Source of the DNA: Roseiflexus sp.
Lineage (GTDB): Bacteria > Chloroflexota > Chloroflexia > Chloroflexales > Roseiflexaceae
Assembly (NCBI GenBank): GCA_025062325.1
Contig: JANXAL010000127.1
Coordinates: forward strand, 4,358 to 68,357
Direction of reading: 5' to 3'
DNA: 64,000 bases
This document shows, one piece after another, positions 16,094-48,800 of this stretch. The notes beneath the pieces are model-generated. The model was given only the letters and a program-made list of their open reading frames with translations, was not told the origin of the DNA and did not search any database. Both the position numbers and the translations under genes were made by a program. How positions within the stretch are numbered: the stretch's first letter is position 1; each line of letters begins with the position of its first letter.

Positions 16094-16122
16094 CCCTCGC
16101 ATTGTGCGAGTGGAGGAGATCC

Positions 16123-16944
16123 ATGCCACTGGTCGGTAATATCCGTGATTTTGGACTTTCGGACTTTCTATACCTCGTTGATCGGGGCTACAAGACGGGG
16201 TGCCTGCATCTGAGCCGCGCCGATGAAATGGCATCGCTGTACTTTGATAAGGGGAAACTGATCACAGCAACCCGCAAGGACGATAATGTTCCGGTCACTG
16301 AGCTGCTTGTTCGCAAAGGAAAATTGACCCCGGTGCAGGCAGCGCAGGCAACGCAGGTGCATCAGAGTCAGAACGGCGTCACCCTGTCGCAGGTGCTACT
16401 TAACTTAGAGTTGATCGGACGCGATGAATTGCAGCGCGTCCTGCAACAGCATATCGAAGAAGCAGTGTACGCGCTGTTTAGTTGGAATGAGGGGGAATTT
16501 CGCTTCGAACAGGGTCAACGCCCCGATCCAACCGCACCAATTATGCCGACGCCTCTGGCAGTCGAGCATCTGATCATGGAGGGGGTGCGGCGCATCGATG
16601 AGTGGGGTCGGATTAGGGATCGCATTCCGAGCACCGATATGGTCGTGAAGTTCATTGAGCAACCTGTCGAGCGCACGAAAGGGATTAACCTTGCTGCTGA
16701 CGAGTGGCGCGTGTTTGCACGGATCAATGGGAAAGACACCCTGGCGGAGATTGCCCGAAAGACAGGAATGAGCGAGTTTGAGGTCTGTCGCATCGTCTAT
16801 GGCTTCCTGACCGCCGGGTTGGTCGATGTCATTCGCAAGCCGGCGCCGGTGCCGATGCTGGCCACGGGCCGACCCCTGGCCGAGGCGCCACGTGTTAAGA
16901 AGAGCCTGGTGACCCGCATTATCAATCGCATTCGTGGTATGTAA
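16123..16944 (+). CDS. DUF4388 domain protein
   Basis: N-terminal GNIRDFGLSDFLYLVDRGYKTGCLHLS... matches the DUF4388 (PATAN-like) signature. GAGGAG SD. 26 nt upstream of an MglA-like GTPase gene. Confidence 0.6.
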   Translation: MPLVGNIRDFGLSDFLYLVDRGYKTGCLHLSRADEMASLYFDKGKLITATRKDDNVPVTELLVRKGKLTPVQAAQATQVHQSQNGVTLSQVLLNLELIGRDELQRVLQQHIEEAVYALFSWNEGEFRFEQGQRPDPTAPIMPTPLAVEHLIMEGVRRIDEWGRIRDRIPSTDMVVKFIEQPVERTKGINLAADEWRVFARINGKDTLAEIARKTGMSEFEVCRIVYGFLTAGLVDVIRKPAPVPMLATGRPLAEAPRVKKSLVTRIINRIRGM

Positions 16945-16970
16945 CGGCGCAGTCAGCACGGAGGACCGGT

Positions 16971-17501
16971 GTGCAGACGGTAAAAATGGTCATCAGCGGC
17001 GCAGTTAACGCCGGTAAAACCGAGTTTATCAAGACGATTAGCGAAATCGAAGTGGTTTCGACCGAGCGTCCCGCAACGGACGATACTCGACTGATCAAGA
17101 AAGAAACCACGGTTGCAATGGACTTCGGGCGCATTGCAATCGGCGATGATTTGGTGCTGCATCTGTTCGGCACGCCAGGGCAGAAGCGCTTCGATTTTAT
17201 GTGGGAGATCCTCTCGGAAGGGATGCTGGGGCTCGTCATTCTCGTCGATAGTACGCGCCCTGAGACGTTTCGGGAGACGAATCGCATCATCGACTTCTTC
17301 ATGTCGTACCGCGAGACCCCTTATGTGGTGGCAGCCAATAAGCAGGATCGCCCGAACGCCTGGTCGCCAGAAGAGTTGCGGCTGGCGCTGCGCCTGCCTT
17401 CCCATATCAAAGTGCTGCCTTGCATGGCAACTGATCGCGAGAGCGTTAAGAATGTGCTGCTTGAGCTGCTCGATGTGATCATGCAACGCAGTGAGGATTA
17501 G
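16971..17501 (+). CDS. MglA-family Ras-like small GTPase
   Basis: P-loop GAVNAGKT. Switch/G3 region DFGRIAIGDDLVLHLFGTPGQKRF closely parallels M. xanthus MglA ([26 protein letters not shown]). G4 ANKQDRPNA matches MglA YNKRDLPNA. 176 aa. Confidence 0.75.
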   Translation: MQTVKMVISGAVNAGKTEFIKTISEIEVVSTERPATDDTRLIKKETTVAMDFGRIAIGDDLVLHLFGTPGQKRFDFMWEILSEGMLGLVILVDSTRPETFRETNRIIDFFMSYRETPYVVAANKQDRPNAWSPEELRLALRLPSHIKVLPCMATDRESVKNVLLELLDVIMQRSED

Positions 17502-19073: not shown

Positions 19074-19766
19074 ATGGTGTATCCTGCCGATAGGAGAGAT
19101 TGCGTCGAGAATGCTATGTCACTCGCACTATTACTTGACTCCCTCCTGAGCCTGTTGCTGCCCGACCGCTGTGCCGGATGCGGTCGATTGGGGGCGTTGC
19201 TCTGCGACGAGTGCCGTCATCGGCTCGTCGTGTATGATGAGGCTCTGCCGCGCGTCGCCGATCAGTTGACGGGTGTGCGTATCGCATATGTATTTGAGGG
19301 TCCGCTGCGCCACGCGCTGCACCAGCTTAAGTACCGCCGTCGGCGGCGCGTGGCGCGTCCGCTGGGGACACTGATGGCATCACATCTGCACACGCACCCG
19401 CTCCCGTGTGATGCGCTCATCCCTGTGCCGCTTCATCAAAAGCGCCTGAAAGAACGCGGCTTCAATCAAGCGGAATTGCTAGCGCGCGAAGTCGCCAGGG
19501 CAACCGGTTTCCCGCTGGTGGTAGGACCGCTGGTACGGATCAGGGCGACTCGACAGCAGGCGCTGCTGGGTGTGGCGGAGCGTATCGAGAACGTGGCGGA
19601 TGCGTTTGTGTGGAAAGGTCCGGCGCCGCCAGCGCGTATTGTGCTGGTCGATGATGTTCTGACCACCGGCGCGACGGTCAATGCCTGCGCGGCAGCGTTG
19701 CGTGCTGGCGGCGCGCGCGAGGTATACGCGCTGGCACTGGCGCGCAGCCGGGGACACATGCCTTGA
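19074..19766 (+). CDS. ComF/GntX-family phosphoribosyltransferase-domain protein
   Basis: N-terminal CxxC-x7-CxxC zinc finger (CAGCG...CDEC), C-terminal PRTase motif VLVDDVLTTGATV. Start uncertain (ATG 19074 without SD, or ATG 19116). Confidence 0.7.
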   Translation: MVYPADRRDCVENAMSLALLLDSLLSLLLPDRCAGCGRLGALLCDECRHRLVVYDEALPRVADQLTGVRIAYVFEGPLRHALHQLKYRRRRRVARPLGTLMASHLHTHPLPCDALIPVPLHQKRLKERGFNQAELLAREVARATGFPLVVGPLVRIRATRQQALLGVAERIENVADAFVWKGPAPPARIVLVDDVLTTGATVNACAAALRAGGAREVYALALARSRGHMP

Positions 19767-20166
19767 TTGCTGCGCCGAGACCGCTCTCGCCTATGTAAAT
19801 GGCTCAAATATGCGTCAGTGAGTAGCGGACGGGCGCGCTCCCGCGTGGGTCCGGGTCCCATCCCGCCGCCGGGACTGCCGCTGGTCGTCTTACTGCCGGG
19901 ATCTCCGCTGCCAATCCCCAGACTTGCGCTTCGCTGTCTATCTGCCAATGACGGTAGGGTGACGCTGATACGCCGCTCGATATCCTGGCGGAGGAGCGGT
20001 GCGGGGGCGCGGTTAGGCGAATGCGGCAGCGAGGAAGCGCACGTGTCAGCGAATACACGAATGCTGCAACGAATAAATTACGGTGGCGAACAAACGAAGG
20101 CGGCGACGTATATGCCAATGTATTGACGGATAAGCGATTGAGTCGGCGAATAAGCGAATGGTGACC

Positions 20167-20194
20167 GTTGAACGTTCAACGTTGAACGTTCAAC
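20167..20194. promoter_or_regulatory. Two tandem copies of the 14-bp palindrome GTTGAACGTTCAAC
   Basis: gttgaacgttcaac x2 at 20167-20194, 17 nt downstream of the cpaF stop in the cpaF/comF convergent region. Related TTGAACGTT motifs recur at ~11262 and ~29186. Confidence 0.4.
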
Positions 20195-20210
20195 GCTTGA
20201 CCCTGCCTCA

Positions 20211-21647
20211 TCACCACGATCGTTTCTGCCCCGGAACCGTTGCGCCAAAGATCGATGGCGGCAGTTTGAAGCCATGCGCTTCAAGGCGCGGGGTGAAACG
20301 CGGTCGTGTGCCCGTGGGACGCAACTCGCTAATGATCTTGCCTTCGGGAGTTTTGCCAAGAATGTGAAGCACGAAGATGTCCTGCAACACGACGACATCG
20401 CCCTCCATCCCCTGTACCTCAGTAATGTAGGCAATTTTGCGACTGCCGTCTTCCAGACGCGTCTGCTGCACGATCAGGTCAATGGCAGACGCAATCTGCT
20501 CGCGGATCACCCGCAGCGGTATGTCCATGCCTGCCATCATCGCCATTGTTTCCATACGCGCGATAGCGTCGCGCGGCGAGTTGGCGTGGAGAGTCGAAAG
20601 CGATCCGTCGTGGCCAGTGTTCATCGCCTGGAGCATCGCCATGGTTTCGCCGCCGCGACACTCGCCGATGACAATCCGCTCGGGACGCATACGCAGTGCA
20701 TTGATCACCAGATCGTTGATGGTTACGCGACCGGTGCCGTCGATCTCCGGCGGCTTCGACTCGAGTCGCACGACATGCTCCTGCGCAAGTTTCAGTTCAG
20801 CGCTGTCTTCAATAGTGACAATCCGCTCGTCGGGCGGAATAAAGTTTGACAGTACGTTGAGCAGAGTCGTCTTACCGGAACCGGTGCCGCCAGAGACAAT
20901 AATATTCAGGCGGCTGACGACGCATGCGCGCAGGAACTCCGCCATTTCGGGCGTCATCGAGCCAAAGCGGATCAGATCCTCGACAGTTAATTTTTTCTTG
21001 GCAAACTTGCGGATCGTAATCGACGGCCCATCAATAGCGCACGGCGGGATGATAGCATTCACACGCGAACCATCGGGAAGGCGCGCGTCAACCATTGGCC
21101 ATTTGCGGTCGATGCGTCGTCCCAGCGGGCGGATGATGCGGTCAATAACCTTCAGCACGTGCTCATCGTTAGCGAACCGCACCGACGTTAGCGTGATCTT
21201 GCCTTTTTGCTCAACATACACTGCACGCGGTCCGTTCACCATCACCTCGGTAATGCTGTCGTCGCGGAGCAGCGGCTCGATGGGGCCAAAACCGAACAAC
21301 TCGTCCATCACCATATCGTAGAGTTGCCGGGTCTGCTCATCGGTTAGATTGACGCCGCTCTGCCGGTAGGCAAGGGTGAACTTTTCTTGCAGTTGACGCT
21401 CCATCTCGGGGGAGCGCTTGAGTTCCTGCTGATTGCCGAGCGAACTGAGAATACGGTCAACTATCCACAGGGATAATTCCAGCATTCGCTGCTGCGATAT
21501 CTCGCTGCCAGCAGTGACGGTCGGTTGTCCTGTCCGCGGCGCTGGCCCATGGTCGGCTGCCCCAGATGGCGCCGGAGCGCTGGCTGGCGCGACGGGTTCG
21601 GATGCTGGCTGCGGTTGCGGTCCGCCTATTCGCTTCAGTAACGACAT
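20211..21647 (-). CDS. cpaF: CpaF/TadA-family type II/IV secretion ATPase
   Basis: Walker A GGTGSGKTT, Asp box, His box, TadA/CpaF N-terminal domain. 478 aa. Confidence 0.85.
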   Translation of the reverse strand: MSLLKRIGGPQPQPASEPVAPASAPAPSGAADHGPAPRTGQPTVTAGSEISQQRMLELSLWIVDRILSSLGNQQELKRSPEMERQLQEKFTLAYRQSGVNLTDEQTRQLYDMVMDELFGFGPIEPLLRDDSITEVMVNGPRAVYVEQKGKITLTSVRFANDEHVLKVIDRIIRPLGRRIDRKWPMVDARLPDGSRVNAIIPPCAIDGPSITIRKFAKKKLTVEDLIRFGSMTPEMAEFLRACVVSRLNIIVSGGTGSGKTTLLNVLSNFIPPDERIVTIEDSAELKLAQEHVVRLESKPPEIDGTGRVTINDLVINALRMRPERIVIGECRGGETMAMLQAMNTGHDGSLSTLHANSPRDAIARMETMAMMAGMDIPLRVIREQIASAIDLIVQQTRLEDGSRKIAYITEVQGMEGDVVVLQDIFVLHILGKTPEGKIISELRPTGTRPRFTPRLEAHGFKLPPSIFGATVPGQKRSW

Positions 21648-21662
21648 AGTTCTGCTCCGACG

Positions 21663-23039
21663 CTATGAAAGTTTCACAAAGTATGCATCGTATGCCCGAT
21701 CAAGCAGTTCACGCGACATTGACGGCGGTATGCCGCGATATTTGGCTTCATCAAGGATCTGGTCGCACAGATCGCGCGGGTGACAGGCGCGCAGCTCGCG
21801 CCCATCGCGTTTATAGCGTTCGAGGATCAGGTAGCGCAGCCCTTCATCGCTGTACGGAATATTCTTCGCCTTGGCGACGCGCTGAAAGATAGCACGAAAT
21901 TCCTCGGGCGTCGGGTTAGGCACCTCAATCTTGTGCCGGATGCGTCGTAGAAAGGCGTCGTCCACCAGATCCTGCGGCGAGAGGTTGGTCGAGAAGACAA
22001 TCAGCACATCGAAGGGCACCTGAATCTTTTTGCCAGTCTGAAGGGCGAGAAAATCGACTTTCTTCTCCAGCGGCACGATCCAGCGGTTGAGCAGATCTTG
22101 CGGACGACACTTTTGCCGACCGAAGTCGTCAATCAGGAACAACCCGCCATTGGCTTTCATCTGGTAGGGCGCTTCGTAGACTTTGGCGATTGGGTCGAAG
22201 ATCAGTTCGAGTTGTTCCAGAATCAACTCACCGCCGACCATCACCCGCGGCCGTTTGCAGACCAGCCAGCGTCGGTCGGGCAGCGGCGATTCGACTATCG
22301 GACGACCCTCGAATGAGACTGCCGGTTCGCGCATCGTGGCGGCGGGTTGCTCGACCACCTGGTGGTTGAGCGGGTCGAAGACCTTGATGATCTGCCCGTC
22401 AACCTCAACCGCATATGGAATCAGGACATGACCGCCGAGCATATTGGCGATCCCCTCGGCAATTGTTGTTTTCCCGTTGCCGGGAGGACCATAGAGGAAA
22501 AGTGAACGCGCCGAGTTTGCAGCAGGACCAATACGGTCGAGCATGCGCTCGCTGACGACGAGGTGCGCGAACGCCTGGCGCACAGTTTTCGCATCTACTA
22601 CCATGTCGCCGACCGACTGGCGATGAACCATGGCAACATACTGGTCAAGAGGAACAGGCGCCGGTCCGGCGTACTGTGAACGATCCAGCACCTCGTGGAC
22701 TTTCAGACGTCCTTTGGTTGCAACCACATACTGGAATGATCGTTCATTGAAGCCGCCCTGAGCGCCGACGATATCGACATACTCTTCCAGTTTGAGAAAC
22801 TCGAGCACTTTATCGAGCACGCCGAAGAACGGCAGTTTCGTCACCTCAGCAATCTGCTGCCCTGTGATATTGCCGTGGAAGTAGATGACCTTCAGCACCA
22901 GGTCGTTCAGAAACCCCATGCTGAGACCGGTTTCCTCGATCGAAGTCGGCTCCGGCGGGACGGCGACGCCAGCCGTGGCGCCAGCCGGAGATGCCGCTGT
23001 GCGCTGCCTGTCTGCGAACTGCTGCGAGAAAAAGCTCAT
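21663..23039 (-). CDS. AAA+ ATPase with ~170-aa N-terminal (winged-helix-like) domain
   Basis: Walker A LFLYGPPGNGKTTIAEGIANML, Walker B GGLFLIDDFG (DnaC/IstB-like DD box). 15 nt upstream of cpaF. ATGA-coupled to the upstream duplicated-domain gene. Confidence 0.7.
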   Translation of the reverse strand: MSFFSQQFADRQRTAASPAGATAGVAVPPEPTSIEETGLSMGFLNDLVLKVIYFHGNITGQQIAEVTKLPFFGVLDKVLEFLKLEEYVDIVGAQGGFNERSFQYVVATKGRLKVHEVLDRSQYAGPAPVPLDQYVAMVHRQSVGDMVVDAKTVRQAFAHLVVSERMLDRIGPAANSARSLFLYGPPGNGKTTIAEGIANMLGGHVLIPYAVEVDGQIIKVFDPLNHQVVEQPAATMREPAVSFEGRPIVESPLPDRRWLVCKRPRVMVGGELILEQLELIFDPIAKVYEAPYQMKANGGLFLIDDFGRQKCRPQDLLNRWIVPLEKKVDFLALQTGKKIQVPFDVLIVFSTNLSPQDLVDDAFLRRIRHKIEVPNPTPEEFRAIFQRVAKAKNIPYSDEGLRYLILERYKRDGRELRACHPRDLCDQILDEAKYRGIPPSMSRELLDRAYDAYFVKLS

Positions 23040-23728
23040 GCCGACCCCTCCGTCGAACGAACTGGCAGCCAGGGAACGTCGCTGGCGCGTATCACAGCAT
23101 CGATAGGCGCGACAAGATCGATCGCCTGACGACCGATGAGCAAGAAACTGGCGTGGTAGAGCAGCGCATTGTCGCTCACCCGAAAGACGCGGGCGTCGGT
23201 CATTGGCAGGTAACGCGCCTGTTCGTCGTTGAGCTCATCTTTCAATCGCCAGTCGGGGCGCACGTAAAGGTAGCCAAGCACTGCCAGATCGCCGCCGCGC
23301 ACCACGCACAAAACCGCGTCCTTTGGCGTGCGTACTGTGAAATACTTGCCACGCTCGTTTACGTGCACCCCCAGATCGTCATTGTCGCGGATCAGCGGCA
23401 TGGGTTCAGCGGTCGGATCGATCCACGGAACCTCACGAACCGCTGCCAGCGCGTCGAGTTCGCTGATCAGAAGGATGTCGCGGTACGCAGCCAGCAGGAA
23501 CGATGTCTGCAGCAGAAAACTCTCATCGTCTGCCCGATAGACGCGGGCGTTGGTGATGGGGAGGAAGGCGGACGTATCGCCGTTCAACTCGTCGGTCAGG
23601 CGATTGCCAGGTCGCACATAGACCGATCCGACGATCACTTTCCCCGGTGTACGCACAAAGGCGGTCACGGCATCTTTGGTGATCCGCGGGGTAAAGAATT
23701 TGCCCTTTTCGTCAATCCGTACTTCCAT
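23036..23728 (-). CDS. Hypothetical protein with internal tandem duplication (2 x ~100-aa unit), family unrecognised
   Basis: Repeat 1 IDEKGKFFTPRITKDAVTAFVR...YVRPGNRLTDELN...LPITNARVYRADDESFLLQTSFLL aligns with repeat 2 VNERGKYFTVRTPKDAVLCVVR...YVRPDWRLKDELN...LPMTDARVFRVSDNALLYHASFLL. Strong SD GGAGAGGAAG. Stop overlaps the AAA+ start. Confidence 0.5.
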   Translation of the reverse strand: MEVRIDEKGKFFTPRITKDAVTAFVRTPGKVIVGSVYVRPGNRLTDELNGDTSAFLPITNARVYRADDESFLLQTSFLLAAYRDILLISELDALAAVREVPWIDPTAEPMPLIRDNDDLGVHVNERGKYFTVRTPKDAVLCVVRGGDLAVLGYLYVRPDWRLKDELNDEQARYLPMTDARVFRVSDNALLYHASFLLIGRQAIDLVAPIDAVIRASDVPWLPVRSTEGSA

Positions 23729-23789
23729 ACCGCTTCCTCTCCATCAGGCAACGGACAAGAAGGCGCCCTGATCGCCAGCGACAAACAGA

Positions 23790-23820
23790 GAACCGGACGT
23801 ATATGTTATACGTCCGGTTC
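23790..23820 (-). terminator. Perfect 14-bp stem / 3-nt loop hairpin between the TPR gene and the duplicated-domain gene
   Basis: gaaccggacgtata-tgt-tatacgtccggttc. On the minus strand it is followed by CUCUGUUUGU. 68 nt downstream of the TPR stop. Confidence 0.5.
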
Positions 23821-23887
23821 CAGTATAGATGACGGGTATGCCGGATGGCAATAGTACGGCAGCGCTACATGCTCATAGGAATGCTGT

Positions 23888-24745
23888 CTATTCCTCGATC
23901 AGATCCTCGTCGTCGCCGATGTCCGGCTCGATTTCCTCCAGCCCAAGTTCTTCATCTTCACTGCCGAAGACTTCTTCGTCCACATCCTCGCGCACTTCGA
24001 CACTTTCCTCTTCTTCAAGCAACTCCTCGCCAAACTCGTCGAACTGCGCACTGCTCATCAATGCACCGCGGAGAGCGCTCTCGCTCAGATTGCCGGGGAA
24101 GGACACACGCCCGCGCTGCGATGGCGCTTGGTAGATCTCACGGATGATGATCCGAACCTGACGACCATCGGTGCGGGCCACTGCAGCGATATACCGGTTG
24201 CCGCCTGCCATCAGTTCACGCAAACGTTGCGCCAGTTTCGGTTCGATGTAGCCAACCAGCATGCCGGACGTGTCGTAGACCGCCACTCTGCGCCCTTCAA
24301 GACGCAGTTCCACCTTCTCGCCTGTAACAATCGTTGCAAGCGCTGGCCCGCGTTGAACATCAACGAGCGTTGTCAACGCCGTCTTTCCGACTTCGGTGAT
24401 AAACAACCGCAGGTCGACCAGTTGACGTCCGGTTTTCAGCGGACCTGGGAGGGACGCCGACTTTGCCAGCAGTTCCTCAATACGTTCGAGATTGCGGCGC
24501 GCGATACGATTGTTTGGCGCAAGGCGGAGCGCATTGCGATAAGCGTCGCGCGCTTCAGTAAGACGCCCTAACTCAAAGTACGCCTTGCCGAGACGATTGT
24601 AGGTTTCGGGCGCTTCCGCCAGGCTGATCAGTTTTTCATTGACCTGCGCCGCCTCTGCCCAGCGGCTCCGCGCTGCCAGCTCGACCGCCTGGTTTTGCAG
24701 GCGGCGTTGCAGGCGAACTTTTTCGTCCTGTTTTGTCAATGCCAT
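23888..24745 (-). CDS. TPR-repeat protein with highly acidic C-terminal tail
   Basis: TPR-like helical repeats (YNRLGKAYFELGRLTEARDAYRNALRLAPNN) and a C-terminal EEEESVEVREDVDEEVFGSEDEELGLEEIEPDIGDDEDLIEE tail. ATG 24745 with AGGGAG SD chosen; the track's GTG 24769 would overlap the upstream gene. Confidence 0.55.
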   Translation of the reverse strand: MALTKQDEKVRLQRRLQNQAVELAARSRWAEAAQVNEKLISLAEAPETYNRLGKAYFELGRLTEARDAYRNALRLAPNNRIARRNLERIEELLAKSASLPGPLKTGRQLVDLRLFITEVGKTALTTLVDVQRGPALATIVTGEKVELRLEGRRVAVYDTSGMLVGYIEPKLAQRLRELMAGGNRYIAAVARTDGRQVRIIIREIYQAPSQRGRVSFPGNLSESALRGALMSSAQFDEFGEELLEEEESVEVREDVDEEVFGSEDEELGLEEIEPDIGDDEDLIEE

Positions 24746-24753
24746 CTCCCTAA

Positions 24754-25593
24754 TCACATATGAGGGCACGTGCCCGGATTATTGATACAGGTCAACAGCG
24801 CAATAAAGGCGATGCCGTTATTGATTGCGTGAGCGACCATCGCTGGAATCAGGCTGCCGCTGCGATCGAATCCCCAGGCAAACACCAGACCGATCAGGAA
24901 CGATGGCACGAGCAGCCCGATGAGACCTTCGGTAGCAGCTAGCGAGTGCGATAGGGCGAACACTAGGGCGCTGATGCCGTAGGCAATAGCGATGCCCGTG
25001 CGCGAATCGCCTGCGAGCCGTCGCAGCGAGCCGAAGAGATAGCCGCGAAACAGCACCTCTTCGCCAATCGGGGCCAGCACTGCCGCTCCGATAAAGAACA
25101 GCGCCTGCCCTACATAATCCCCTGGAAACAGCGGGTAGAGCGCCGCCTGGTTCTGGCGAACGCCGAAACTGACGAACAGCACGCCGACAATGCCATTAAG
25201 GAGGAGCGCCAGCAGCCCCAATCCGATCCCAAACAGGACCAATCGGAATGGATGCGGGGCGCTCAACCCCAGCACGGCCAATGGCTCGCGGCGTAGCACC
25301 CGCACCCGCACGACTGCAACGCTGATGAAAATCAGGTTTTGCAGCACCAGCAGCGCCAGCATGCCATCGGCGCCGATCAGTTGAGCAATCTCGCGGGTGT
25401 TCAGTTGATCGATGGCGCCGAGGTCGATGCCTGCCTGCGTGGCGCGCAGGATCAGGAGCACGCCGACGACCGCTCCACTAAGCGCAAGCGCCATACCGAG
25501 CGCGATGAGCAAATCGGCTGCCAAAGCGCCAATCGCAGCACGCGGCGAAACACGCAGCGGCGGATGCGACGCTGGCGCGTTGAGCGTATTCAT
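24754..25593 (-). CDS. CPBP-family intramembrane metalloprotease (CAAX protease/Abi)
   Basis: EExxFRG motif (GEEVLFRGYLFG), FxxxH and HAxNN motifs (VFALSHS...AMVAHAINN). ATG 25593 overlaps the miaB stop by 1 nt. Confidence 0.7.
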   Translation of the reverse strand: MNTLNAPASHPPLRVSPRAAIGALAADLLIALGMALALSGAVVGVLLILRATQAGIDLGAIDQLNTREIAQLIGADGMLALLVLQNLIFISVAVVRVRVLRREPLAVLGLSAPHPFRLVLFGIGLGLLALLLNGIVGVLFVSFGVRQNQAALYPLFPGDYVGQALFFIGAAVLAPIGEEVLFRGYLFGSLRRLAGDSRTGIAIAYGISALVFALSHSLAATEGLIGLLVPSFLIGLVFAWGFDRSGSLIPAMVAHAINNGIAFIALLTCINNPGTCPHM

Positions 25594-33602: not shown

Positions 33603-34922
33603 ATGACGAAACGTATCCTGATTGCAGACGATGAACCGGCAGTGCGTCAACTGCTTGAGTTGGTGTTGCGGTCGCAAGGCTATGAGGTCTTTGTCGCTCA
33701 AAACGGCGACCAGCTTGTGCGCACCGCCCAGGAGTGGATACCGGATCTGGTCATCGTCGATCTGATGATGCCGCAGATGGATGGGTATGAAGCGATTCGT
33801 CAACTCCGCAACGATACCCGCACCGCCCATGTGCCGATGCTTATTCTCACGGCTCGTTCCACTGCTGAAGATGTAGTCACCGGTTTCGACACCGGCGCCG
33901 ACGATTATATTACTAAGCCTTTCAGTATCCCTGAGTTGCTTGCTCGCATCCGTGCACATCTTCGCCGCGCAGCGCAAACGCCAGTCCATAATCCGCTAAC
34001 TGGTCTGGCGGGGAACGTGCTTCTGACCGAAGAGTTGAAGTATCGCCTGCGCAACAGTGCGCCATTCGCGCTTCTGTATATTGATCTCGATAATTTCAAA
34101 GCGTTCAACGACACCTACGGACCAGCGCGCGGCGACCGATTGATCAAGCTAGTGGCGGAGGTGTTGGTGGAAGTGGTGCAGCAGCACGGCTCGTCGAGCG
34201 ATTTTATCGGGCATATCGGCGGGGACGACTTTGCCGTGCTAACCACGCCGGATCGTCTTGACTCAATCTGTCAGGGCATTATTGCCCTGTTCGATAAGCG
34301 CGTGCGTGACCTGTACGATCCAGAAGACTTGGCACGCGGGTATCTGCGCAGCGTTGATCGTCAGGGAGTGCCGAGAAACTTTCCGATCACAACGATCTCG
34401 ATCGGAGTAGTTACCAACCGCCGCCGCCGCTTTACCGACTACGACGAAGTCAGTCGGATTGCTGCAGAGATGAAACAGTACGCTAAGCAACTGCCTGGCA
34501 GCACCTATGCGGTCGATATTCGCGGCATTAGCGATCAGGTGGTTGAACGGGATCGTCGCGGTTTACCTCTGCCTCCCGTGCTGATTGTTTCGGCTGATGC
34601 CATGCTTCGCAAAACGATTGCTCCTCTTCTCAACGAGATTGACCTGCGAGCGCTCGAGGCGCCGACGGTGCTCGACGCCGAGCGGTTGCTCGCGTATCAC
34701 CCCGAGACTGCTCTGGTGATTGTCGATGCACGTGTCGGGAAACATGTGCATGATTTCTGCAAAAACCTGGCGCAGCATCAACCGGATCTCCCAGTCATTG
34801 CACTTGCCGATCAGCAACATATAGGGATCATTCCCCCCGGCGCCATCAGGCATACCCTCTTGTTGCCGCTCGACAGCGATCAGTTGCGCGTAAAAATTGT
34901 TGAGGTGCGCAGCGCCTCGTAG
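33603..34922 (+). CDS. Response regulator: REC - GGDEF (variant GGDDF) - C-terminal degenerate REC-like domain
   Basis: REC with phospho-acceptor Asp (DLVIVDLMMPQMDG) and KPF. GGDEF domain features NPLTGLAGN...YIDLDNFKAFND...GHIGGDDFAVL. Confidence 0.75.
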   Translation: MTKRILIADDEPAVRQLLELVLRSQGYEVFVAQNGDQLVRTAQEWIPDLVIVDLMMPQMDGYEAIRQLRNDTRTAHVPMLILTARSTAEDVVTGFDTGADDYITKPFSIPELLARIRAHLRRAAQTPVHNPLTGLAGNVLLTEELKYRLRNSAPFALLYIDLDNFKAFNDTYGPARGDRLIKLVAEVLVEVVQQHGSSSDFIGHIGGDDFAVLTTPDRLDSICQGIIALFDKRVRDLYDPEDLARGYLRSVDRQGVPRNFPITTISIGVVTNRRRRFTDYDEVSRIAAEMKQYAKQLPGSTYAVDIRGISDQVVERDRRGLPLPPVLIVSADAMLRKTIAPLLNEIDLRALEAPTVLDAERLLAYHPETALVIVDARVGKHVHDFCKNLAQHQPDLPVIALADQQHIGIIPPGAIRHTLLLPLDSDQLRVKIVEVRSAS

Positions 34923-34933
34923 GGAACGTTTCT

Positions 34934-37900
34934 ATGCAGGCAGTGATCACTAGTCTGGTTGTACTTGCCATCATCGTGGTCGCTCTACTGCTGCCGCCGG
35001 TGCGTATGCGATTGCACGTCTGGATGCGCATGGCGTGGACGTCGGCATTGCAACGCGCAAGGTTGGTGCGTAGCGCAACCGTCATTAGCAGCTCGGGCGA
35101 AGAGATCGAGGTGCCTGACGTAGTCCGAACCGACTCGCTCTGGATCGAGCGTGTGCGCGAATGGTGGCATGGCATCCGTCTGCAAACTGTTTTTGCTGGC
35201 GTACTCACGGTTGCGCTGACTCTCCTGGCATTACAGCGCCTGCTGCCTGCTACTCGCGCTGATGAATTGACCGTCCTGGTTGCGCCATTCGCCGAACCTG
35301 GCAGCGTTGCCAGCGCGACCGGTCGTGCCGCGGCGCAAGAACTAGCAGACGTGCTGACCTCAACGGTCGGACCGGGCGTTGCCGTCCGCTGGATCGAGGC
35401 GCCGCCAGGCGATCGGGAGTCGGCGCTGACGCTGCTGCGTGAGGCCCGCGCGGATGTCCTCATCGTGGGGGAGATCGCGCCTGGCGGGATGCTCGATGCA
35501 GAAACGCTGACACCTGTGCTGATCTATGCACCGGGCGGCATTCAGGCAATAGCCAGCCTTGATGGTTTCGTCGGGCGTTTCGCCTTCCCGACGGTCTATC
35601 CACTTGCTACCCAGCCAATCAACGGCCGTATCGTTCTTCCGCGTCTGGTGCGCGCTCTGGCAGACTATAGCAACGGCAAGTATAGCGCGGCGGCGGCAGC
35701 GTTCGATGATCTTGAGCGAGAACAGCCAGCGTTGCGCCCTGGCTTACTGCGCACGCTGCGCGCTATGATGTGGTGGGCGCGCGGCAACTATGAGCAATCG
35801 GCAAGCGAATTTCGCCGTGCAATTGATGCCATGCCCGATGCGCCGCCTGCCGAACTGGCGCGCCTCTACACTTCCCTGGGCGCAGTGCAGCATGAGATGG
35901 GCGATCCGGCGGCGCGCGATTCGTTCAATCGGGCGATTGCGCTCCTCCAGGGACAAGACCTGGGCGAACTGCGCTACAACCTGGCGCTCGAAGAACTGCG
36001 ATCAGGCAATCCAGCCGCCGCCGCCGTGTCGCTCGAACAGGCGCGGCGGTTGTTACCGCCATCGACGCCGTTGCTCGTCACGCTTGCTGAAGCATATCGC
36101 CTGAGCGGACAATTCGATGCAGCATCTGAGGCGCTCAACGCTGCTACCCGTCAAATTGGCGTCGATGACCGTGTCGTCCCGTTCGATCTCCGTCCGCTGA
36201 TGAATGCTCGTCTCCGGGCGAGCGTGCAGAGCGAGCGGGCATTGTTGCAAATGACGCGCCTGCTGAATGCGCGTGGTCCGCTGCTCTGGGAAGTAGAGAG
36301 CGCGCCGCAGCCCTCGGAAGCGGAACGACCACGGAGAGAGGCAGCGCTGAATCAGATCCTCGGCGATTTTTCGCTAGCGCTGCGTGAAGTGACAAACCTC
36401 GCTCAGGAGTGGAGCAGACGGGCGGCTGCCGCCGACTCCGAGCAGCGCTTGATTGACGGCAGCATCGCCACGCATCAGGCGCGCCGCGCTGATCTAGCCA
36501 TCCGTCGTTACCGCTTCTGGCTGGCTGTCGTTGAGGTGGAACTTGCGCGCCTGCGCGGTACGCAAGCGCTGACAGGACTGGCGGCGCTCTGGACCGGGCT
36601 GACGCGCACATGGTCGCCTGCTGCTGATGCATTGCGTCAGATCGAGACGCTGGAGAAAGGTCAGCCGGGCAATGTAGAATTGACCATTCTGCGCGGTCGG
36701 GCGCTGCTAGTGAACAACCGGGAGAATGACGCACGCACGGCATTCGAGACGGCAGCACGACTGGCGCCCGAACGTCCAGAGCCGCAGTTCCATCTGGCAA
36801 TGCTGGCATTGCCGCAGAGTCGTGACCAGGCGCGGCAGTTACTTGAAGCAGCGTTGCAGCGCGACCCGACCTACTTTCCAGCGCGTATCCGTTTGGCGGA
36901 ACTGGCAGAGGAAGAGCAGCGCTGGCAAGACGCGCTCGCACAACGGCGCTGGCTCGCCGAAAACCACGCAGGGGCTGATGAAGCGCTGGCGCTGGCGCGG
37001 ACCCTTCGGCTGAGCGGACCAGATGGGTATGCAGAAGCGGAACGGGTGCTGATGCCGCTGGCAGAGCGCAATCACGCCGCTGCGATTATCGAAATGAGCC
37101 GCCTCTATCGCGCTGCAGGTCGGCTCGATGAGGCGCGGAGCGTTTTGGAGCGCGGACAGCAGAACACTGCCCGCAGCGCTCCGGCATATGCCGATATCAC
37201 CCACGAACTCGGATTGGTGTTAATCGATCTGGGAGATATTGATCGGGCTGAGCGTCAGTTCGAAGCGGCGATCAATGCAAATCCGCGGCATATTGCTTCC
37301 TATCTGATGCTGGCGCATCTAGAGCGGCGCGCCGGGAACGATCGCGCAGCGGCGCGTCGCTACGCAGCCGCGCTCGACGCTGGCGCCAGCGATCCGGCGG
37401 TCCTCGAGCACATCGGAGCGATGTTGATTGAACTCCGCGAATACGATGCCGCAGCGACCGCCTATGAGCGCGCCGTGGTGCGCCAGCCAGGCAGTGCGAC
37501 GCTGCGGTATGGCGCAGCGCGGGCGTATCTAGAGGCAGGACGTCTCGACGCTGCCGATGAGTTGGCGCGGCAAGCGTTGGAGCGACAGCCGATCTACCCC
37601 GAAGCGCTGGTTCTTCTGGGAGATATTGCTCTTCGGCGGGGCAACCTGTCAGAATCCGAGCAACAGTATCGCGCAGCGCTCCAGCAAAATCCGACGCTCG
37701 CCGCAGCCCATATTGGGCTTGGGCGTGTGGCGGCGGCAGGCGGCAACTGGTCAATCGCAGCCGGGCACTTTCTCAACGCAGTGCAGGGGGACCCACAATC
37801 GCCGGATGCGTTCCTCTGGCTCGGCGAGGCGCGGATGCGTGTCGGGGACGTGGATGGCGCAATTGCCGCCTATCAACAGGCGCTGCAGCTACGCTCTGAT

Positions 37901-38467
37901 TTCCCGGAAGCATACTTTGGGCTGGCACAGGCACAGTTTGGCAAAGGGAACGTTGACGCAGCGTTGCGCAACGTCAATCGCGCACTGGAACAGCGACCGC
38001 GCTACGCTGAGGCATCCCTGCTGCTAGGGAAATTGTACGAGCAGCAGGGATATAGCACACGCGCGCTTGAAGCCTATAAACGGGCTATCGACGCTAATTC
38101 GCGCCTGGCTGAACCTCACTATCGTCGAGCGCTGCTTCTGATCCGTGCTGACCGATGGAGCGAAGCGCGTGATGAGCTCGAAATCGTCACACGCCTGGAG
38201 CCCAACTTTGCTGAAGCACATTACTGGTTGGGACGGGTCTATTTTGCGCAGCGCAACTTCTCGGCTGCGGTCAACCGCTTTCGTGAAGCGGTCAACCGGC
38301 GCAATGGCAACTATCCTGAAGCGCGGTATTATCAGGGACGTGCAGAAGAGCAACTCGGAGATCTGAACGCGGCCATGCGATCATTCGAGACAGTCGCTCA
38401 ACAGAGCGAGGATGCGCTCTGGGCAGGCGAGGCGCGGGCAGCGCTGGCACGCTTGAGTGATCGCTAG
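34934..38467 (+). CDS. Large TPR-repeat protein (1177 aa) with N-terminal transmembrane helix
   Basis: N-terminal hydrophobic helix, >15 TPR-like repeats throughout (e.g. AEAYFGLAQAQFGKGNVDAALRNVNRALEQRPRYAEA). Confidence 0.65.
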   Translation: MQAVITSLVVLAIIVVALLLPPVRMRLHVWMRMAWTSALQRARLVRSATVISSSGEEIEVPDVVRTDSLWIERVREWWHGIRLQTVFAGVLTVALTLLALQRLLPATRADELTVLVAPFAEPGSVASATGRAAAQELADVLTSTVGPGVAVRWIEAPPGDRESALTLLREARADVLIVGEIAPGGMLDAETLTPVLIYAPGGIQAIASLDGFVGRFAFPTVYPLATQPINGRIVLPRLVRALADYSNGKYSAAAAAFDDLEREQPALRPGLLRTLRAMMWWARGNYEQSASEFRRAIDAMPDAPPAELARLYTSLGAVQHEMGDPAARDSFNRAIALLQGQDLGELRYNLALEELRSGNPAAAAVSLEQARRLLPPSTPLLVTLAEAYRLSGQFDAASEALNAATRQIGVDDRVVPFDLRPLMNARLRASVQSERALLQMTRLLNARGPLLWEVESAPQPSEAERPRREAALNQILGDFSLALREVTNLAQEWSRRAAAADSEQRLIDGSIATHQARRADLAIRRYRFWLAVVEVELARLRGTQALTGLAALWTGLTRTWSPAADALRQIETLEKGQPGNVELTILRGRALLVNNRENDARTAFETAARLAPERPEPQFHLAMLALPQSRDQARQLLEAALQRDPTYFPARIRLAELAEEEQRWQDALAQRRWLAENHAGADEALALARTLRLSGPDGYAEAERVLMPLAERNHAAAIIEMSRLYRAAGRLDEARSVLERGQQNTARSAPAYADITHELGLVLIDLGDIDRAERQFEAAINANPRHIASYLMLAHLERRAGNDRAAARRYAAALDAGASDPAVLEHIGAMLIELREYDAAATAYERAVVRQPGSATLRYGAARAYLEAGRLDAADELARQALERQPIYPEALVLLGDIALRRGNLSESEQQYRAALQQNPTLAAAHIGLGRVAAAGGNWSIAAGHFLNAVQGDPQSPDAFLWLGEARMRVGDVDGAIAAYQQALQLRSDFPEAYFGLAQAQFGKGNVDAALRNVNRALEQRPRYAEASLLLGKLYEQQGYSTRALEAYKRAIDANSRLAEPHYRRALLLIRADRWSEARDELEIVTRLEPNFAEAHYWLGRVYFAQRNFSAAVNRFREAVNRRNGNYPEARYYQGRAEEQLGDLNAAMRSFETVAQQSEDALWAGEARAALARLSDR

Positions 38468-41547: not shown

Positions 41548-42460
41548 CCTATGGCGCAGCAGCCTCACACTGCCGCTAACCGCCCGTCGGGGCGCCCAGG
41601 GGACGCCTCTCTCACAAGTGTAGAGCTTTTGGGAAGCGATGGGTGTTTTCCGCGTCCCGCCGCCCTGTTTCCCCTCATCCCCCCTACCCCCTTCTCCCAC
41701 CCCCCCTGCGCCTTCCGCATGCAGGGGGTTGGGGCGTCCTGACGCTCAAAACGGGCGATGCAACAGAAGGGCTTGCCGAAAAATCTACACTTGTGAGCGC
41801 CTTCTCCCCTCCCCCGGGGGGCAGGGGGTGCTCTCAAGTGTAGGCTTTTTGGAGGCCAAAGCAGGTTTGCCGCATCCTGACGCCCTTTTCCCCTCATCCC
41901 CCCTACCCCCTTCTCCCACAAGGGGAGAAGGGGGAGTTGGGGCGTCCTGTCGCCTGAAACGGGCAATGCAACGTGAGGGCGTGCCGAAAAACCTATGTGA
42001 GGGCAGGGGGTGGGGGTGCGCCGGCATCCTCTCCTCTCCCCTGCTCTCAAGTGTAAGCTTTTTGGCGTGCGAAGCGGATTTGCCGCATCCCGACGCCCTG
42101 TTTCTCCTCATCCCCCCTACCCCCTTCTCCTACCCTTTCAAGTGTAAGCTTTTTGGCGTGCGAAGCGGATTTGCCGCATCCCGACGCCCTTGTTCCCCTC
42201 ATCCCCCCTGCCCCCTTCTCCCACAAGGGGAGAAGGGGGAGTTGGGGCACCCTTTTGCCTCAAACGGACGATGCAACGTGAGGGCGTGCCGGAAAAATCT
42301 ACACTTGTGAGCTTCTCCCACCCCCCTGCGCCCCCGCATGCGGGGGGTTGGGGGAAGAAGGGGGGGTTGGGGCGTCCTGACGCTCAAAACGGGCGATGCA
42401 ACAGAAGGGCTTGCCGAAAAATCTACACTTGTGAGGGGAGAAGGGGGAGCTACGGCATCC
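41548..42460. repeat. Cluster (>=6 copies, both orientations) of ~120-bp hairpin repeat units (CCCCTTCTCC-N7-GGAGAAGGGG core + gggcgtcctgacgc / tctacacttgtgag modules)
   Basis: Repeated blocks, e.g. ccccttctcccacaaggggagaagggggagttggggcgtcctg at ~41900 and ~42210, gcgtcctgacgctcaaaacgggcgatgcaacagaagggcttgccgaaaaatctacacttgtgag at ~41740 and ~42370. ORFs in the region translate the repeats (PLPPSPTRGEGG...). Confidence 0.8.
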
Positions 42461-46396: not shown

Positions 46397-47824
46397 TCAG
46401 GAGAATGCTGCCGCTACTAAAACAGCAATAGTGATCAAAGCGAGCGAAAAGCTGCCAATAGCAATATAGAAGTTTCTAACAGCAGCGGCATCAGTAGCGG
46501 CAAGACGCGCCTGTAATACCTCCTGCTGCTGTTGAAGCTTGCTCAGTTCATCACCTGCCCGATCAATTTGCGCATACAGGGGTTCGAGCGTCGGAGAGTC
46601 AGGACGCACACGATCAACCATCGGACCCAAATTACTGATTAACGGTGCCATACGCTGCGTAAGTTCCGCTATTTGCTTATTGTGTGTGCGGATTTCTTCC
46701 TGAAGCGCCGCTATTTGGCGATCAAGAGGAGTCAACGCCTCGCGCTGCTCAGACTGGAGATTGAGAATCTGTTTTTCAAGACGCTCAAGGTCATTTGCGA
46801 GCGACGTCTCATCAGCGCTCAATTGCGAGATCTCGGACTGCAATCGTGGCACATCATTGGCAATCTGCACCAGCGACCGCTCCAGCGCTGCAATCGCATT
46901 CGATAGAGAGGCAGTTTGGGTTCCTTGGTCTGACGTCAAAGATGACTGCTGTTGCGCCAGCTTGTCTCGTAACGTTTGTATCTCCGTTTGAGTTTTCTGC
47001 TGGTCAACCTGCAACTTGCTCAATCGCTTCTCCAATGCCGACTTATCGGCACGAATCTTTGTCAATCGTGCACTTGCATTAGTTCGTTCTTCTTGAAGCC
47101 GATTGATACGCGCTGCATACTCGGCATCTGTCTGAGTTCGTGTTTGTCGTGCATTTTGCAATCTCTGTTCACAACTCCTCATTTGCTCCTGTAGAGCGGT
47201 GCGCTTCTGCTCTAAATCTTCCAGTTCGCCATATAGTTCTGCATAATCGGGATGGACAACACGCAATTCCCATGCCTTAGCAACCAGCTCAGAGACAAGC
47301 TGACGTCTGGTATTCTCGGCTCGGTTTTTATCGGATCCCGTCTTAAGCAATTGAGCTTTCCATTTACCGGCAGAAAGACCCGCTTCACCCCATTTCCTCA
47401 ACCTGCCCGTAAAGGCTAGACTTAGTGCTGTTCCCAGCGTAACAACAGATAATACTCCAGCGCCAATCAAAGGGATCCAGTTTATAGGACTTCTAGGTAT
47501 AACTACAGCATATGGCAACTGGTAGGGATTTTCCCAAACAACAGTGCCATCATTAATTTGTCTGCCATTGCTCTCGAGCACCTTACCAGCGTGAAGCGTC
47601 AGGGTGAATTTTCGGAAACCAGTCAGGTACTCATGGAACTCGAACTTATATGCACTGATTCCGTTATGAACTATCTCTGTCCAGGAAAATCCATCCTTTC
47701 CTCTGTCTGTTATTTGAGCCCGGTAACTCACTTCATACTCTATAACATCGCTAAGCCTGTTGTCGACGCGCTTCCACGTTACATCAGTAAAACCTCGCTT
47801 CTTAGCATCTTCGATGTATTTCAT
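46397..47824 (-). CDS. Two-TM coiled-coil protein (N-terminal globular domain, ~300-aa coiled coil, C-terminal TM anchor) in low-GC island
   Basis: TM1 WIPLIGAGVLSVVTLGTALSLAF, heptad-rich region with L/Q/E/R repeats, C-terminal FYIAIGSFSLALITIAVLVAAAFS. Local GC ~40-45% versus ~63% in the flanks. Confidence 0.5.
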   Translation of the reverse strand: MKYIEDAKKRGFTDVTWKRVDNRLSDVIEYEVSYRAQITDRGKDGFSWTEIVHNGISAYKFEFHEYLTGFRKFTLTLHAGKVLESNGRQINDGTVVWENPYQLPYAVVIPRSPINWIPLIGAGVLSVVTLGTALSLAFTGRLRKWGEAGLSAGKWKAQLLKTGSDKNRAENTRRQLVSELVAKAWELRVVHPDYAELYGELEDLEQKRTALQEQMRSCEQRLQNARQTRTQTDAEYAARINRLQEERTNASARLTKIRADKSALEKRLSKLQVDQQKTQTEIQTLRDKLAQQQSSLTSDQGTQTASLSNAIAALERSLVQIANDVPRLQSEISQLSADETSLANDLERLEKQILNLQSEQREALTPLDRQIAALQEEIRTHNKQIAELTQRMAPLISNLGPMVDRVRPDSPTLEPLYAQIDRAGDELSKLQQQQEVLQARLAATDAAAVRNFYIAIGSFSLALITIAVLVAAAFS

Positions 47825-48389: not shown

Positions 48390-48800
48390 GGGGGCGGGCG
48401 GCTCTCAGGTGGAGGCTTTTAGGGCGCGAAGCAGGTTTGCCGCATCTTGACACCCTTTTTCCTTCGTCCCCCTTGCCCCCTTCTCCCAACCTCACACGTG
48501 TAGATTTTTTCCGGCAAGCCCTCACGTTGCATTGCCCGTTTCAGGCATCAGGACGCCCTACCTCCCCCTTCTCCCACAAGGGGAGAAGGGGACAGGGGGG
48601 ATGAGGGGCAAAAGGCGTCAGGACGCGGCAAACTCGTTTCGCATTCCAAAAAGCCTCCGCTTGAGAGCTTCTCCCACCCCCCTTCGCCCCCCGCACGCCA
48701 GGGGTTGGCGATAACCTCAGTGCGCACCTCGACGCTGAGGATCTTCGCCCCCCGCACGCGGGGGGGTTGGCGTGAGAGGGGGGGGGAGCGGAGGCGTTCC
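48390..48800. repeat. Cluster of hairpin repeat units (same family as 41.5-42.5 kb)
   Basis: cccccttctcccacaaggggagaaggggacaggggggatgaggggcaaaaggcgtcaggacgcggcaaac; gccccccgcacgc(c/g)aggggttggcg palindromes x2; tctacacttgagag-like modules. Confidence 0.75.

Follow-up and report, generated by a model that had tools for sequence, protein, structure and literature searches.

A three-gene unit and its conservation

We analysed a 64-kb stretch of Roseiflexus sp. DNA (hereafter the window), in which three co-oriented minus-strand open reading frames (ORFs) encode a duplicated protein of the DUF6812 family with a predicted Sm-like fold, an AAA+ ATPase with an N-terminal winged helix and a CpaF/TadA-type motor ATPase. 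Comparison of the proteins and their gene neighbourhoods identifies these genes as a unit conserved in Chloroflexota. Every DUF6812 member with an organism name comes from this phylum; since such members are few, the restriction to Chloroflexota is not firmly established. With a confidence slightly below even, we favour the reading that the module is an accessory motor serving Tad pili, with the genes for the membrane parts of these pili located at other places in the genome. The individual parts belong to known superfamilies; their combination and its phylum-wide conservation appear to be undescribed, and the literature yielded nothing relevant on DUF6812, on an Sm-like CpaF partner or on an orphan CpaF paralogue.

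The ORFs lie at 23036-23728 (230 aa), 21663-23039 (458 aa) and 20211-21647 (478 aa). The stop codon of the DUF6812 gene and the start codon of the AAA+ gene share 4 nt as ATGA, and GGAGGGG precedes the AAA+ start. A 15-nt gap separates the AAA+ stop from the CpaF ATG, with GGAG ahead of the CpaF start. This is the overlap and spacing that the first-pass annotation of this DNA had described. The GC content of the module (0.57-0.58, and 0.67-0.68 at third codon positions, GC3) is the same as that of the adjacent genes, and the nearest relatives of the three proteins are encoded in Roseiflexus metagenome-assembled genomes (91-95% identity). We considered a phage origin and found no relative in IMG/VR contigs. 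A defence-system origin was also dropped, since PADLOC gave only P-loop-local IetA/TRIP13 matches for the AAA+ protein and none for the other proteins.

To describe the conservation from the AAA+ side, we surveyed 80 genome loci, of which 44 were Chloroflexia-type. A CpaF gene followed the AAA+ gene in 41 of these 44 (Roseiflexaceae, Kouleothrix, Oscillochloris, Chloroflexus and Herpetosiphon). DUF6812 was encoded upstream of AAA+ in 21 Chloroflexia-type loci, mostly as a single domain, and the tandem form was confined to Roseiflexus and a few relatives. Chloroflexus and Herpetosiphon had no DUF6812 gene upstream of AAA+, and a six-frame search with the hidden Markov model (HMM) found no degenerate remnant there. 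When the DUF6812 proteins were taken as the starting point, 10 of the 12 looked up were followed on the same strand, no more than two genes away, by a T2SSE/PF27713 ATPase gene. The AAA+ gene was also present in five of these 10 loci, in one of them in the order AAA-DUF-CpaF, and in the other five the DUF6812 gene abutted or overlapped the ATPase gene.

Four arrangements were seen. The order DUF-AAA-CpaF occurs in Roseiflexaceae, Kouleothrix and Oscillochloris-type loci and in L001, L093 and L094; AAA-DUF-CpaF in L113; a directly adjacent or overlapping DUF-CpaF pair in L086, L088-L091, L095-L101, L109 and L112; and AAA-CpaF in Chloroflexus and Herpetosiphon. A scan from the CpaF side returned 16 relatives, comprising seven DUF6812-CpaF pairs, one AAA-CpaF pair, five canonical tad loci and three other or truncated loci. 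Four of the five canonical loci read full CpaB-TadZ-CpaF-TadB-TadC, and the truncated L111 shows only CpaF followed by TadB and TadC. An association that recurs although the gene order is permuted and the flanks are different, and in which start codons overlap stop codons, is hard to explain without functional coupling. The synteny of the module genes in other genomes, one of the checks proposed in the first-pass annotation, was thus borne out.

The two-gene form has conserved flanks of its own. In these loci (all those listed above for the DUF-CpaF pair, L086 excepted) two histidine kinases and an OmpR-type response regulator are encoded upstream, and in L095 the stop codon of the regulator overlaps the DUF6812 start. 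Downstream lie genes for a protein with a double XRE-type helix-turn-helix, a small protein resembling tetratricopeptide repeat (TPR) proteins and a GNAT acetyltransferase.

The annotation had also described the CpaF gene as an orphan in an arrangement that matches no Tad, type II secretion, type IV pilus or archaellum-like locus, and we agree on both points; the orphan state holds for the window as well as for more than 70 related loci. Searches with phmmer, using queries from the canonical loci L102 and L105, found no TadB, TadC or CpaB homologue in the window or in any DUF6812- or AAA-linked locus; these homologues were present in canonical loci only. The sole window match of the TadZ query was the receiver domain of a GGDEF response regulator, and a Pfam scan of the large window ORFs revealed no tad genes. 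We saw no pilin gene in the 64 kb, although small Flp pilins were not specifically searched for. The sole exception among the linked loci is L112, where a TadZ-like gene (receiver plus MinD-type ATPase) lies directly upstream of the DUF6812-CpaF pair.

The duplicated protein

The 230-aa protein had been assigned to no recognisable family. This does not hold, since it matches Pfam PF20660 (DUF6812) in two stretches with 90.2 bits against a cut-off of 27.1, the best stretch being aa 150-203. PF20660 was found in all 33 close homologues as well. The internal duplication was correctly recognised, as the two halves share 43% of their residues over 103 aa (E=2e-30). Domain 1 (aa 1-104; 23417-23728, minus strand) includes the conserved N-terminal peptide RxDEKGKFFTPR, and domain 2 (aa 119-222; 23063-23374, minus strand) has the same strand order in the structure model.

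The predicted fold of the domain is a strongly bent five-stranded antiparallel beta-sheet of the Sm/LSm/Hfq type. The family signature consists of the N-terminal DEKGKFFT, which is highly conserved and modelled with low confidence, and of RLKDELN in the loop and helix between strands 2 and 3. Compared with Sm, LSm and Hfq proteins, the model has a helix inserted between strands 2 and 3, which bears RLKDELN, and the conserved DEKGKFFT peptide takes the place of the N-terminal Sm helix. The window protein differs from them further as an acidic tandem fusion. We call DUF6812 an Sm-fold and not an Hfq-family protein because no relationship to Hfq was detectable in sequence: aligning the DUF6812 profile to E. 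coli Hfq with hhalign gave a match probability of 0.4%. The similarity to the Sm1 motif is just a loose D-x-x-x-N/TDA resemblance (D-E-L-N...TDA in the Sm1 position), and the RG motif of Sm2 is absent. The family is mildly acidic, with a median core isoelectric point (pI) of 5.8 and a value of 5.2 for the window protein.

A profile search of 1.84 billion representative proteins returned 407 DUF6812 clusters. Nearly all were single-domain proteins of 90-125 aa and tandem forms were rare. The duplication in the window is a lineage-specific fusion in a family whose members are mostly single domains of about 100 aa. An extreme tandem fusion was seen in a metagenomic protein (P0280, 882 aa) with nine DUF6812 stretches in one chain. 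We also noticed divergent tandem DUF6812-like proteins of 165-193 aa that lack DEKGKFFT in three Thermoflexales-/Anaerolineae-type loci (L059 9873-10370, L072 9789-10370 and L076 9945-10526, minus strand). Their genes lie about 3 kb from the AAA+ gene and on the opposite strand.

The AAA+ protein

The structure model of the AAA+ protein, built on 37 sequences (predicted local distance difference test score, pLDDT, 81), shows a disordered N-terminus, a MarR-like winged helix (aa 30-125; 22665-22952, minus strand) and an AAA+ module (aa 126-458; 21663-22664, minus strand) with a beta-rich insert of about 90 residues between Walker A and Walker B. The module carries Walker A GPPGNGKT, Walker B LFLIDDFGRQ, a sensor-1 TN, an RR finger and the sensor-2 residue R422. 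In the alignment G184-T191, D304-D305, T351-N352, R365-R366 and R422 are invariant, and Walker B reads DD, not DE. Membership of the AAA+ superfamily is clear from the Pfam AAA score (30.1 bits against 21.2) and from the alpha/beta plus lid fold of the model.

Its placement within the superfamily differs from the earlier proposal. A winged-helix N-domain is predicted here too, MarR-like and acidic, and the DnaC/IstB-like identity was not supported. We saw no family-level similarity to these helicase loaders, the only matches being local to Walker A (E~1e-3). Searches against PDB, Pfam and NCBIfam gave P-loop-local matches only, the best PDB one reaching ~1e-9 at Walker A. The structural neighbours of the model suggest a core of the Lon, bacterial enhancer-binding protein (bEBP) or MoxR type. 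Among AAA+ proteins with a helix-2 insert or a pre-sensor-1 insertion, we found no sequence-level membership in the LonB ATPase domain, sigma-54 activators, MoxR/CbbQ/NorQ or ComM. Unlike these, the window protein has no GAFTGA loop, protease domain or VWA partner, and it is set apart by the acidic MarR-like N-domain and the DD of Walker B. In particular, a sigma-54 activator was rejected because PF00158 scored 16.8 bits against a cut-off of 20.2, over aa 295-367 only, and GAFTGA is missing from the sequence. From these comparisons we assign the protein to a distinct AAA+ family. This family is very abundant and strongly conserved: the databases contain 8000 or more relatives, and Chloroflexia and Anaerolineae members are about 50% identical. 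Another protein for comparison is the uncharacterised Q8U0N8 of P. furiosus (PDB 8p49), a hexamer whose N-terminal domain is flexible (bioRxiv 10.1101/2023.06.09.544317).

The winged helix has a pI of 5.05, which speaks against a classical DNA-binding role. As both DUF6812 and this domain are acidic, protein-protein roles fit them better than nucleic-acid binding.

The motor ATPase

The identification of the third protein (20211-21647, minus strand) as CpaF was confirmed. It matches the PDB structure of CpaF (9e24) with E=2.4e-129 over residues 12-461, almost its full length, and PF00437 (T2SSE) with 238 bits. The core formed by the second N-terminal domain (NTD2) and the C-terminal domain (CTD) is 53% identical to C. 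crescentus CpaF. Its whole architecture is that of Tad/Flp (type IVc) CpaF/TadA proteins such as those of Caulobacter (PDB 9e24 and 8rkd), with a disordered NTD0 (MSLLKRIGG and a Pro/Ala-rich linker), a three-helix NTD1, NTD2 and CTD. The N-terminal MSLLKR was considered as a marker of partnership with the AAA+ protein and dropped, since CpaFs of canonical tad loci also begin with MSLLRR or MLLRR.

The window protein shares with these CpaFs Walker A and B, the Asp box, the His box, the hinge glycines, the Loop-8 Asp and the central-loop DGxG. Conservation across 46 orthologues was seen for the Walker A, Walker B and His-box sequences SGGTGSGKTT, RIVIGECRGGE and NTGHDGS, whereas only the window CpaF was inspected for the Asp box. 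Mutagenesis of Caulobacter CpaF showed that the hinge G147/G149, D208 in Loop 8 and residues E331-G334 of the central loop are essential and likely touch the platform formed by CpaG/CpaH (PMC11300603). All 46 orthologues of the window protein have GxGP at the hinge and DG(S/T/H/R)G in the central loop; 45 have the Loop-8 motif RR(I/V)D, the exception reading RYVN. Going by its sequence, the window ATPase is a bona fide CpaF that retains everything needed for ATP hydrolysis and for meeting a GspF-type platform.

We built a neighbour-joining tree of the CpaF core from BLOSUM62 distances, without bootstrap or other support values. In this tree the AAA-linked CpaFs group together, most CpaFs of the two-gene type form their sister group, L086 is basal and the tad-locus CpaFs form a separate clade. 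The separation of the DUF/AAA-linked CpaFs from those encoded in CpaB-TadZ-CpaF-TadB-TadC loci suggests a dedicated paralogue, which is a reasonable reading of a rough tree.

A candidate accessory motor for Tad pili

That the proteins bind one another, in what ring stoichiometry they do so and that they serve Tad pili is inferred from the recurring synteny, the intact motor, the tad operons reported for Chloroflexales and the precedent of the cyanobacterial PilB-Hfq-EbsA complex. The CpaF paralogue would form an ATP-hydrolysing hexamer that docks on a TadB/TadC-type platform encoded elsewhere in the genome. DUF6812 would probably form a ring, made of six single-domain copies in most lineages and of three tandem copies in the window, and its probable role is that of a cofactor bound to the motor, as cyanobacterial Hfq, also Sm-like, binds PilB. 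The AAA+ protein with its winged helix would join them as another partner, probably a hexamer, for regulation or remodelling. Together the three proteins would set when, where or in which mode the second motor works the pilus machine, for example by recruitment or by a choice between extension and retraction.

A tad operon (rcpC-tadZABC, tadE, flp) is found elsewhere in Chloroflexales genomes (PMC7332563), and such operons, each with its own tadA, are known from Roseiflexus castenholzii, Chloroflexus aggregans and Litorilinea (PMC7332563; PMC13319060). The first-pass annotation had implied that the module has no connection to Tad. The absence of adjoining tad genes stands, but the retained platform-contact residues, the TadZ-like gene upstream in one relative and the operon elsewhere in Chloroflexales argue against the wider claim. 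Pili near the septum have been proposed to drive gliding in Chloroflexales (PMC7332563; PMC13319060). It is a less probable reading that the module is the long-sought motor, additional to the first and perhaps specialised for retraction, by which Tad pili could power this gliding.

Several observations weigh against an accessory Tad motor. In more than 70 loci no TadB/C, pilin or prepilin-peptidase gene adjoins the module, small Flp pilins not having been specifically searched for. Since a tadA gene is already part of the canonical tad operons, the need for a second motor is not obvious. The conservation of Loop 8 and of the central loop could instead reflect the internal mechanics of the hexamer and not docking on a platform. 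The separate grouping of the linked CpaFs comes from a tree without support values, with the DUF-linked L086 at its base. Two DUF6812 genes (L085 and L114) have no ATPase gene nearby. Finally, the AAA+ gene is solitary in 36 of the 80 loci (Anaerolineae-, Thermoflexales- and Promineifilaceae-type), among variable housekeeping neighbours, and may therefore have a role independent of CpaF.

Two alternatives stand next, and we regard both as unlikely to a similar degree. In the first, the module is a cytoplasmic machine independent of pili, in which the Sm-like ring and not a platform partners the CpaF hexamer and, with the AAA+ protein, handles RNA or DNA or remodels protein. The Sm fold with its D-E-L-N...TDA stretch at the Sm1 position would suit this role, as would the winged helix on a chelatase/MCM/bEBP-type core and the structured, U-rich leader of the DUF6812 gene, which is of the type bound by Hfq-type proteins. 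The PilT/VirB11 class includes nucleic-acid enzymes, and the window CpaF has weak NCBIfam matches to PINA as well as to TIGR03819, the actinobacterial TadA family conjugal transfer-associated ATPase (329.1 bits, under the cut-off of 373.15). The lack of platform and pilin genes near any locus and the adjoining ComF-like gene also agree with it. However, DUF6812 and the winged helix are both acidic, DUF6812 has no Hfq profile similarity, the platform-contact loops are kept in 45-46 of the 46 orthologues, and a TadZ-like gene stands beside DUF6812-CpaF in L112. Moreover, the nearest precedent, cyanobacterial Hfq, has no known RNA substrate and works at the pilus base.

The second alternative is that DUF6812 and CpaF are the sole true partners, and that the AAA+ protein is an independent phylum-wide housekeeping ATPase, such as a chaperone or regulator, which merely neighbours them. 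It draws on the solitary AAA+ genes, several of them placed right after tig-clpP-clpX, on DUF6812-CpaF pairs without AAA+ in at least 14 loci, and on the very strong conservation of the AAA+ family between classes. In contrast, the AAA+ gene stays in the unit across divergent lineages in three orders, DUF-AAA-CpaF, AAA-DUF-CpaF and AAA-CpaF, where the genes overlap or lie about 10-20 nt apart, and the AAA-CpaF adjacency persists from Herpetosiphonales to Chloroflexales even without DUF6812. The loci with AAA+ directly after tig-clpP-clpX (trigger factor, ClpP and ClpX) are the Anaerolineae-type L057, L060, L067, L068 and L084, and this placement hints at a proteostasis-related role independent of CpaF.

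Less probable still is a self-contained ring stack, built from three copies of the tandem DUF6812 protein and from hexamers of CpaF and of the AAA+ protein, where the Sm-like ring would replace the platform and the whole would act on RNA, DNA or protein without a filament. We find it very improbable that the genes are functionally unlinked and adjacent by inherited synteny: the neighbourhood from MiaB, the Rce1-like gene and the TPR gene through to ComF is syntenic in Roseiflexaceae, so part of the conservation there is simply vertical inheritance, but the association also recurs with completely different flanks and in permuted orders, and the genes overlap at their start and stop codons.

Tad pili are thought to use one bifunctional motor, and the control of its direction and timing is an open question. 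If the accessory-motor reading is true, an additional CpaF paralogue with an Sm-like cofactor and an AAA+ protein would add a new regulatory layer to these widespread pili. It would also be the second independent case, after cyanobacteria, in which a protein of the Sm/Hfq fold assists the ATPase of a type IV filament. The module offers concrete candidate genes for the unexplained gliding and aggregation of filamentous Chloroflexota. The analysis further gives a first structural and contextual annotation of Pfam DUF6812 and of an abundant Chloroflexota AAA+ family labelled just 'ATP-binding protein'.

Relation to known systems

A Tad/Flp locus is recognised by adjacent genes for TadB/TadC, TadZ/CpaE, CpaB/RcpC and Flp, and the window has none of these beside CpaF. 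Whereas the Caulobacter-type CpaF belongs to a tad operon, the window CpaF sits outside any such operon, with no TadZ, TadB/C, CpaB or pilin in the 64 kb. The orphan type always has a DUF6812 gene, a winged-helix AAA+ gene or both before CpaF.

The closest precedent for the proposed partnership is found in cyanobacteria (Synechocystis and Synechococcus elongatus), where PilB, Hfq and EbsA form a tripartite complex needed for pili; this Hfq has no known RNA substrate, is required for piliation and acts at the pilus base (PMC8092324). The two systems would share the combination of an Sm-fold protein, a type IV filament ATPase and a third lineage-specific factor, the pairing in the window being our inference. 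They differ in that DUF6812 is outside the Hfq family by sequence, the ATPase is CpaF and not PilB, and the third partner is an AAA+ ATPase and not EbsA. Unlike in cyanobacteria, the genes in the window are adjacent and translationally coupled.

PilT and PilU of type IVa pili offer another comparison, as paralogous hexameric ATPases that are encoded apart from the structural genes and share the membrane platform of the main motor. PilT is without the N-terminal domains, whereas the window CpaF keeps the architecture of a primary motor; it has dedicated cofactor genes and we saw no sign of a retraction role. Rof/YaeO, the Rho inhibitor, is an Sm-like regulator of a hexameric ATPase, and in this respect resembles what we propose for DUF6812.

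Upstream region and 3' end

A promoter-like element lies upstream of the DUF6812 gene (23822-23868, minus strand). It consists of GTAGCGCTGCC-GTACTATTGCCA with a -35 TTGCCA, an 18-nt spacer and the -10 box TATACT, and a promoter scan scored 10 of 12 matches. The pattern GTAGCNC-N4-GTACTATTG-N18-20-TATACT is kept in about 17 Roseiflexaceae/Kouleothrix-type loci of several genera, while the flanks diverge; the loci that show it are L005-L022, L045 and L046. The window holds one exact GTACTATTG, the one before the DUF6812 gene. This element may act as a promoter that includes a site for an activator or for an alternative sigma factor. We rejected a sigma-54 promoter because the conserved motif has the sigma-70-like TTG...TATACT geometry and does not match the GG-N10-GC spacing.

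A hairpin with a perfect 15-bp stem and a 3-nt loop, followed by a U-rich tract, occupies 23789-23821 (minus strand). The minimum free energy (MFE) of the leader is -46.5 kcal/mol (z=-5.3). In an RNAalifold alignment of 16 related loci all nine consensus pairs had compensatory changes, and no Rfam family matched the hairpin. It starts one base past the -10 box, which makes it a 5' leader hairpin, a terminator of the upstream TPR gene or both; it may end the TPR transcript and at the same time make up the 5' end of the mRNA for DUF6812. The perfect hairpin had been noticed before and was taken to delimit the transcription unit. Since it is placed after the promoter-like element, it is not a simple boundary.

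In the rest of the leader (23729-23788, minus strand) the Shine-Dalgarno sequence GGAGAGGAAG is predicted to pair with the upstream CCUUCUUGUCC. Judged by eye, the Shine-Dalgarno sequence and its pairing partner seem to covary in Roseiflexus relatives (GGAGAGC with CCUCUCGCC). Such pairing could serve translational control or autoregulation.

At the other end of the module, 15 nt past the CpaF stop, we found a 13-bp perfect palindrome (GUUGAACGUUCAAC...) without a U tract (20166-20195, minus strand; MFE -35.5 kcal/mol, z=-5.5), which is a candidate 3' end structure. It lies in a gene-free gap of 445 nt (19767-20210) between the convergent CpaF and ComF-like genes. The gap opens with this palindrome, which is made of AACGTT-containing repeats, and gave no Rfam match.

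Neighbouring genes and other features of the window

The module is embedded among housekeeping genes, with MiaB, an Rce1-like protease and a TPR protein encoded upstream, and a ComF-like protein and a metallo-beta-lactamase-fold protein downstream of CpaF. The TPR gene (23888-24769, minus strand; Pfam TPR_1/TPR_2) is syntenic in Roseiflexaceae and Chloroflexus loci, that is, in Chloroflexales only. Its product has an extremely acidic C-terminal tail (net charge -27 over the last 50 aa), and the middle region has a weak CinA_KH match only. We doubt that this protein belongs to the unit. It was rejected as a fourth component common to all loci, since it is not homologous to the products of the TPR-like genes in Anaerolineae-type loci.

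The ComF-like gene (19074-19766, plus strand), which adjoins the orphan CpaF, encodes a double zinc ribbon and a phosphoribosyltransferase. A protein with the same N-terminal double-CxxC pattern, recognised by eye, is encoded shortly downstream of TadC in two canonical tad loci (L102 7174-7917 and L105 7708-8442). These neighbours could point to a connection with competence, or to common ancestry of both kinds of locus.

At 16102-17501 (plus strand), 3 kb from the module, a gene for a DUF4388 protein with a weak MarR-like C-terminal match is followed by one for a small Ras/Arf-like GTPase (PF03029). They form a regulatory pair of the polarity or motility type and are syntenic in the Roseiflexus relative L008. 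A second pair, at 33603-38467 (plus strand), comprises a receiver-GGDEF response regulator and a multi-TPR protein of 1177 aa and belongs to cyclic di-GMP signalling.

Dispersed direct and inverted repeats of about 100-175 nt, rich in CCCCTxCCCC/GGGGAGAAGGGG, were found at 11.5-11.85, 41.6-42.5, 48.4-48.7 and 49.27-49.37 kb. The long ORFs called over them are probably spurious. A low-GC ORF of 475 aa (46397-47824, minus strand; GC 0.50, GC3 0.46) with no Pfam match lies between the inverted repeats at 41816-41991 and 48507-48682, and it may be a horizontally acquired insert.

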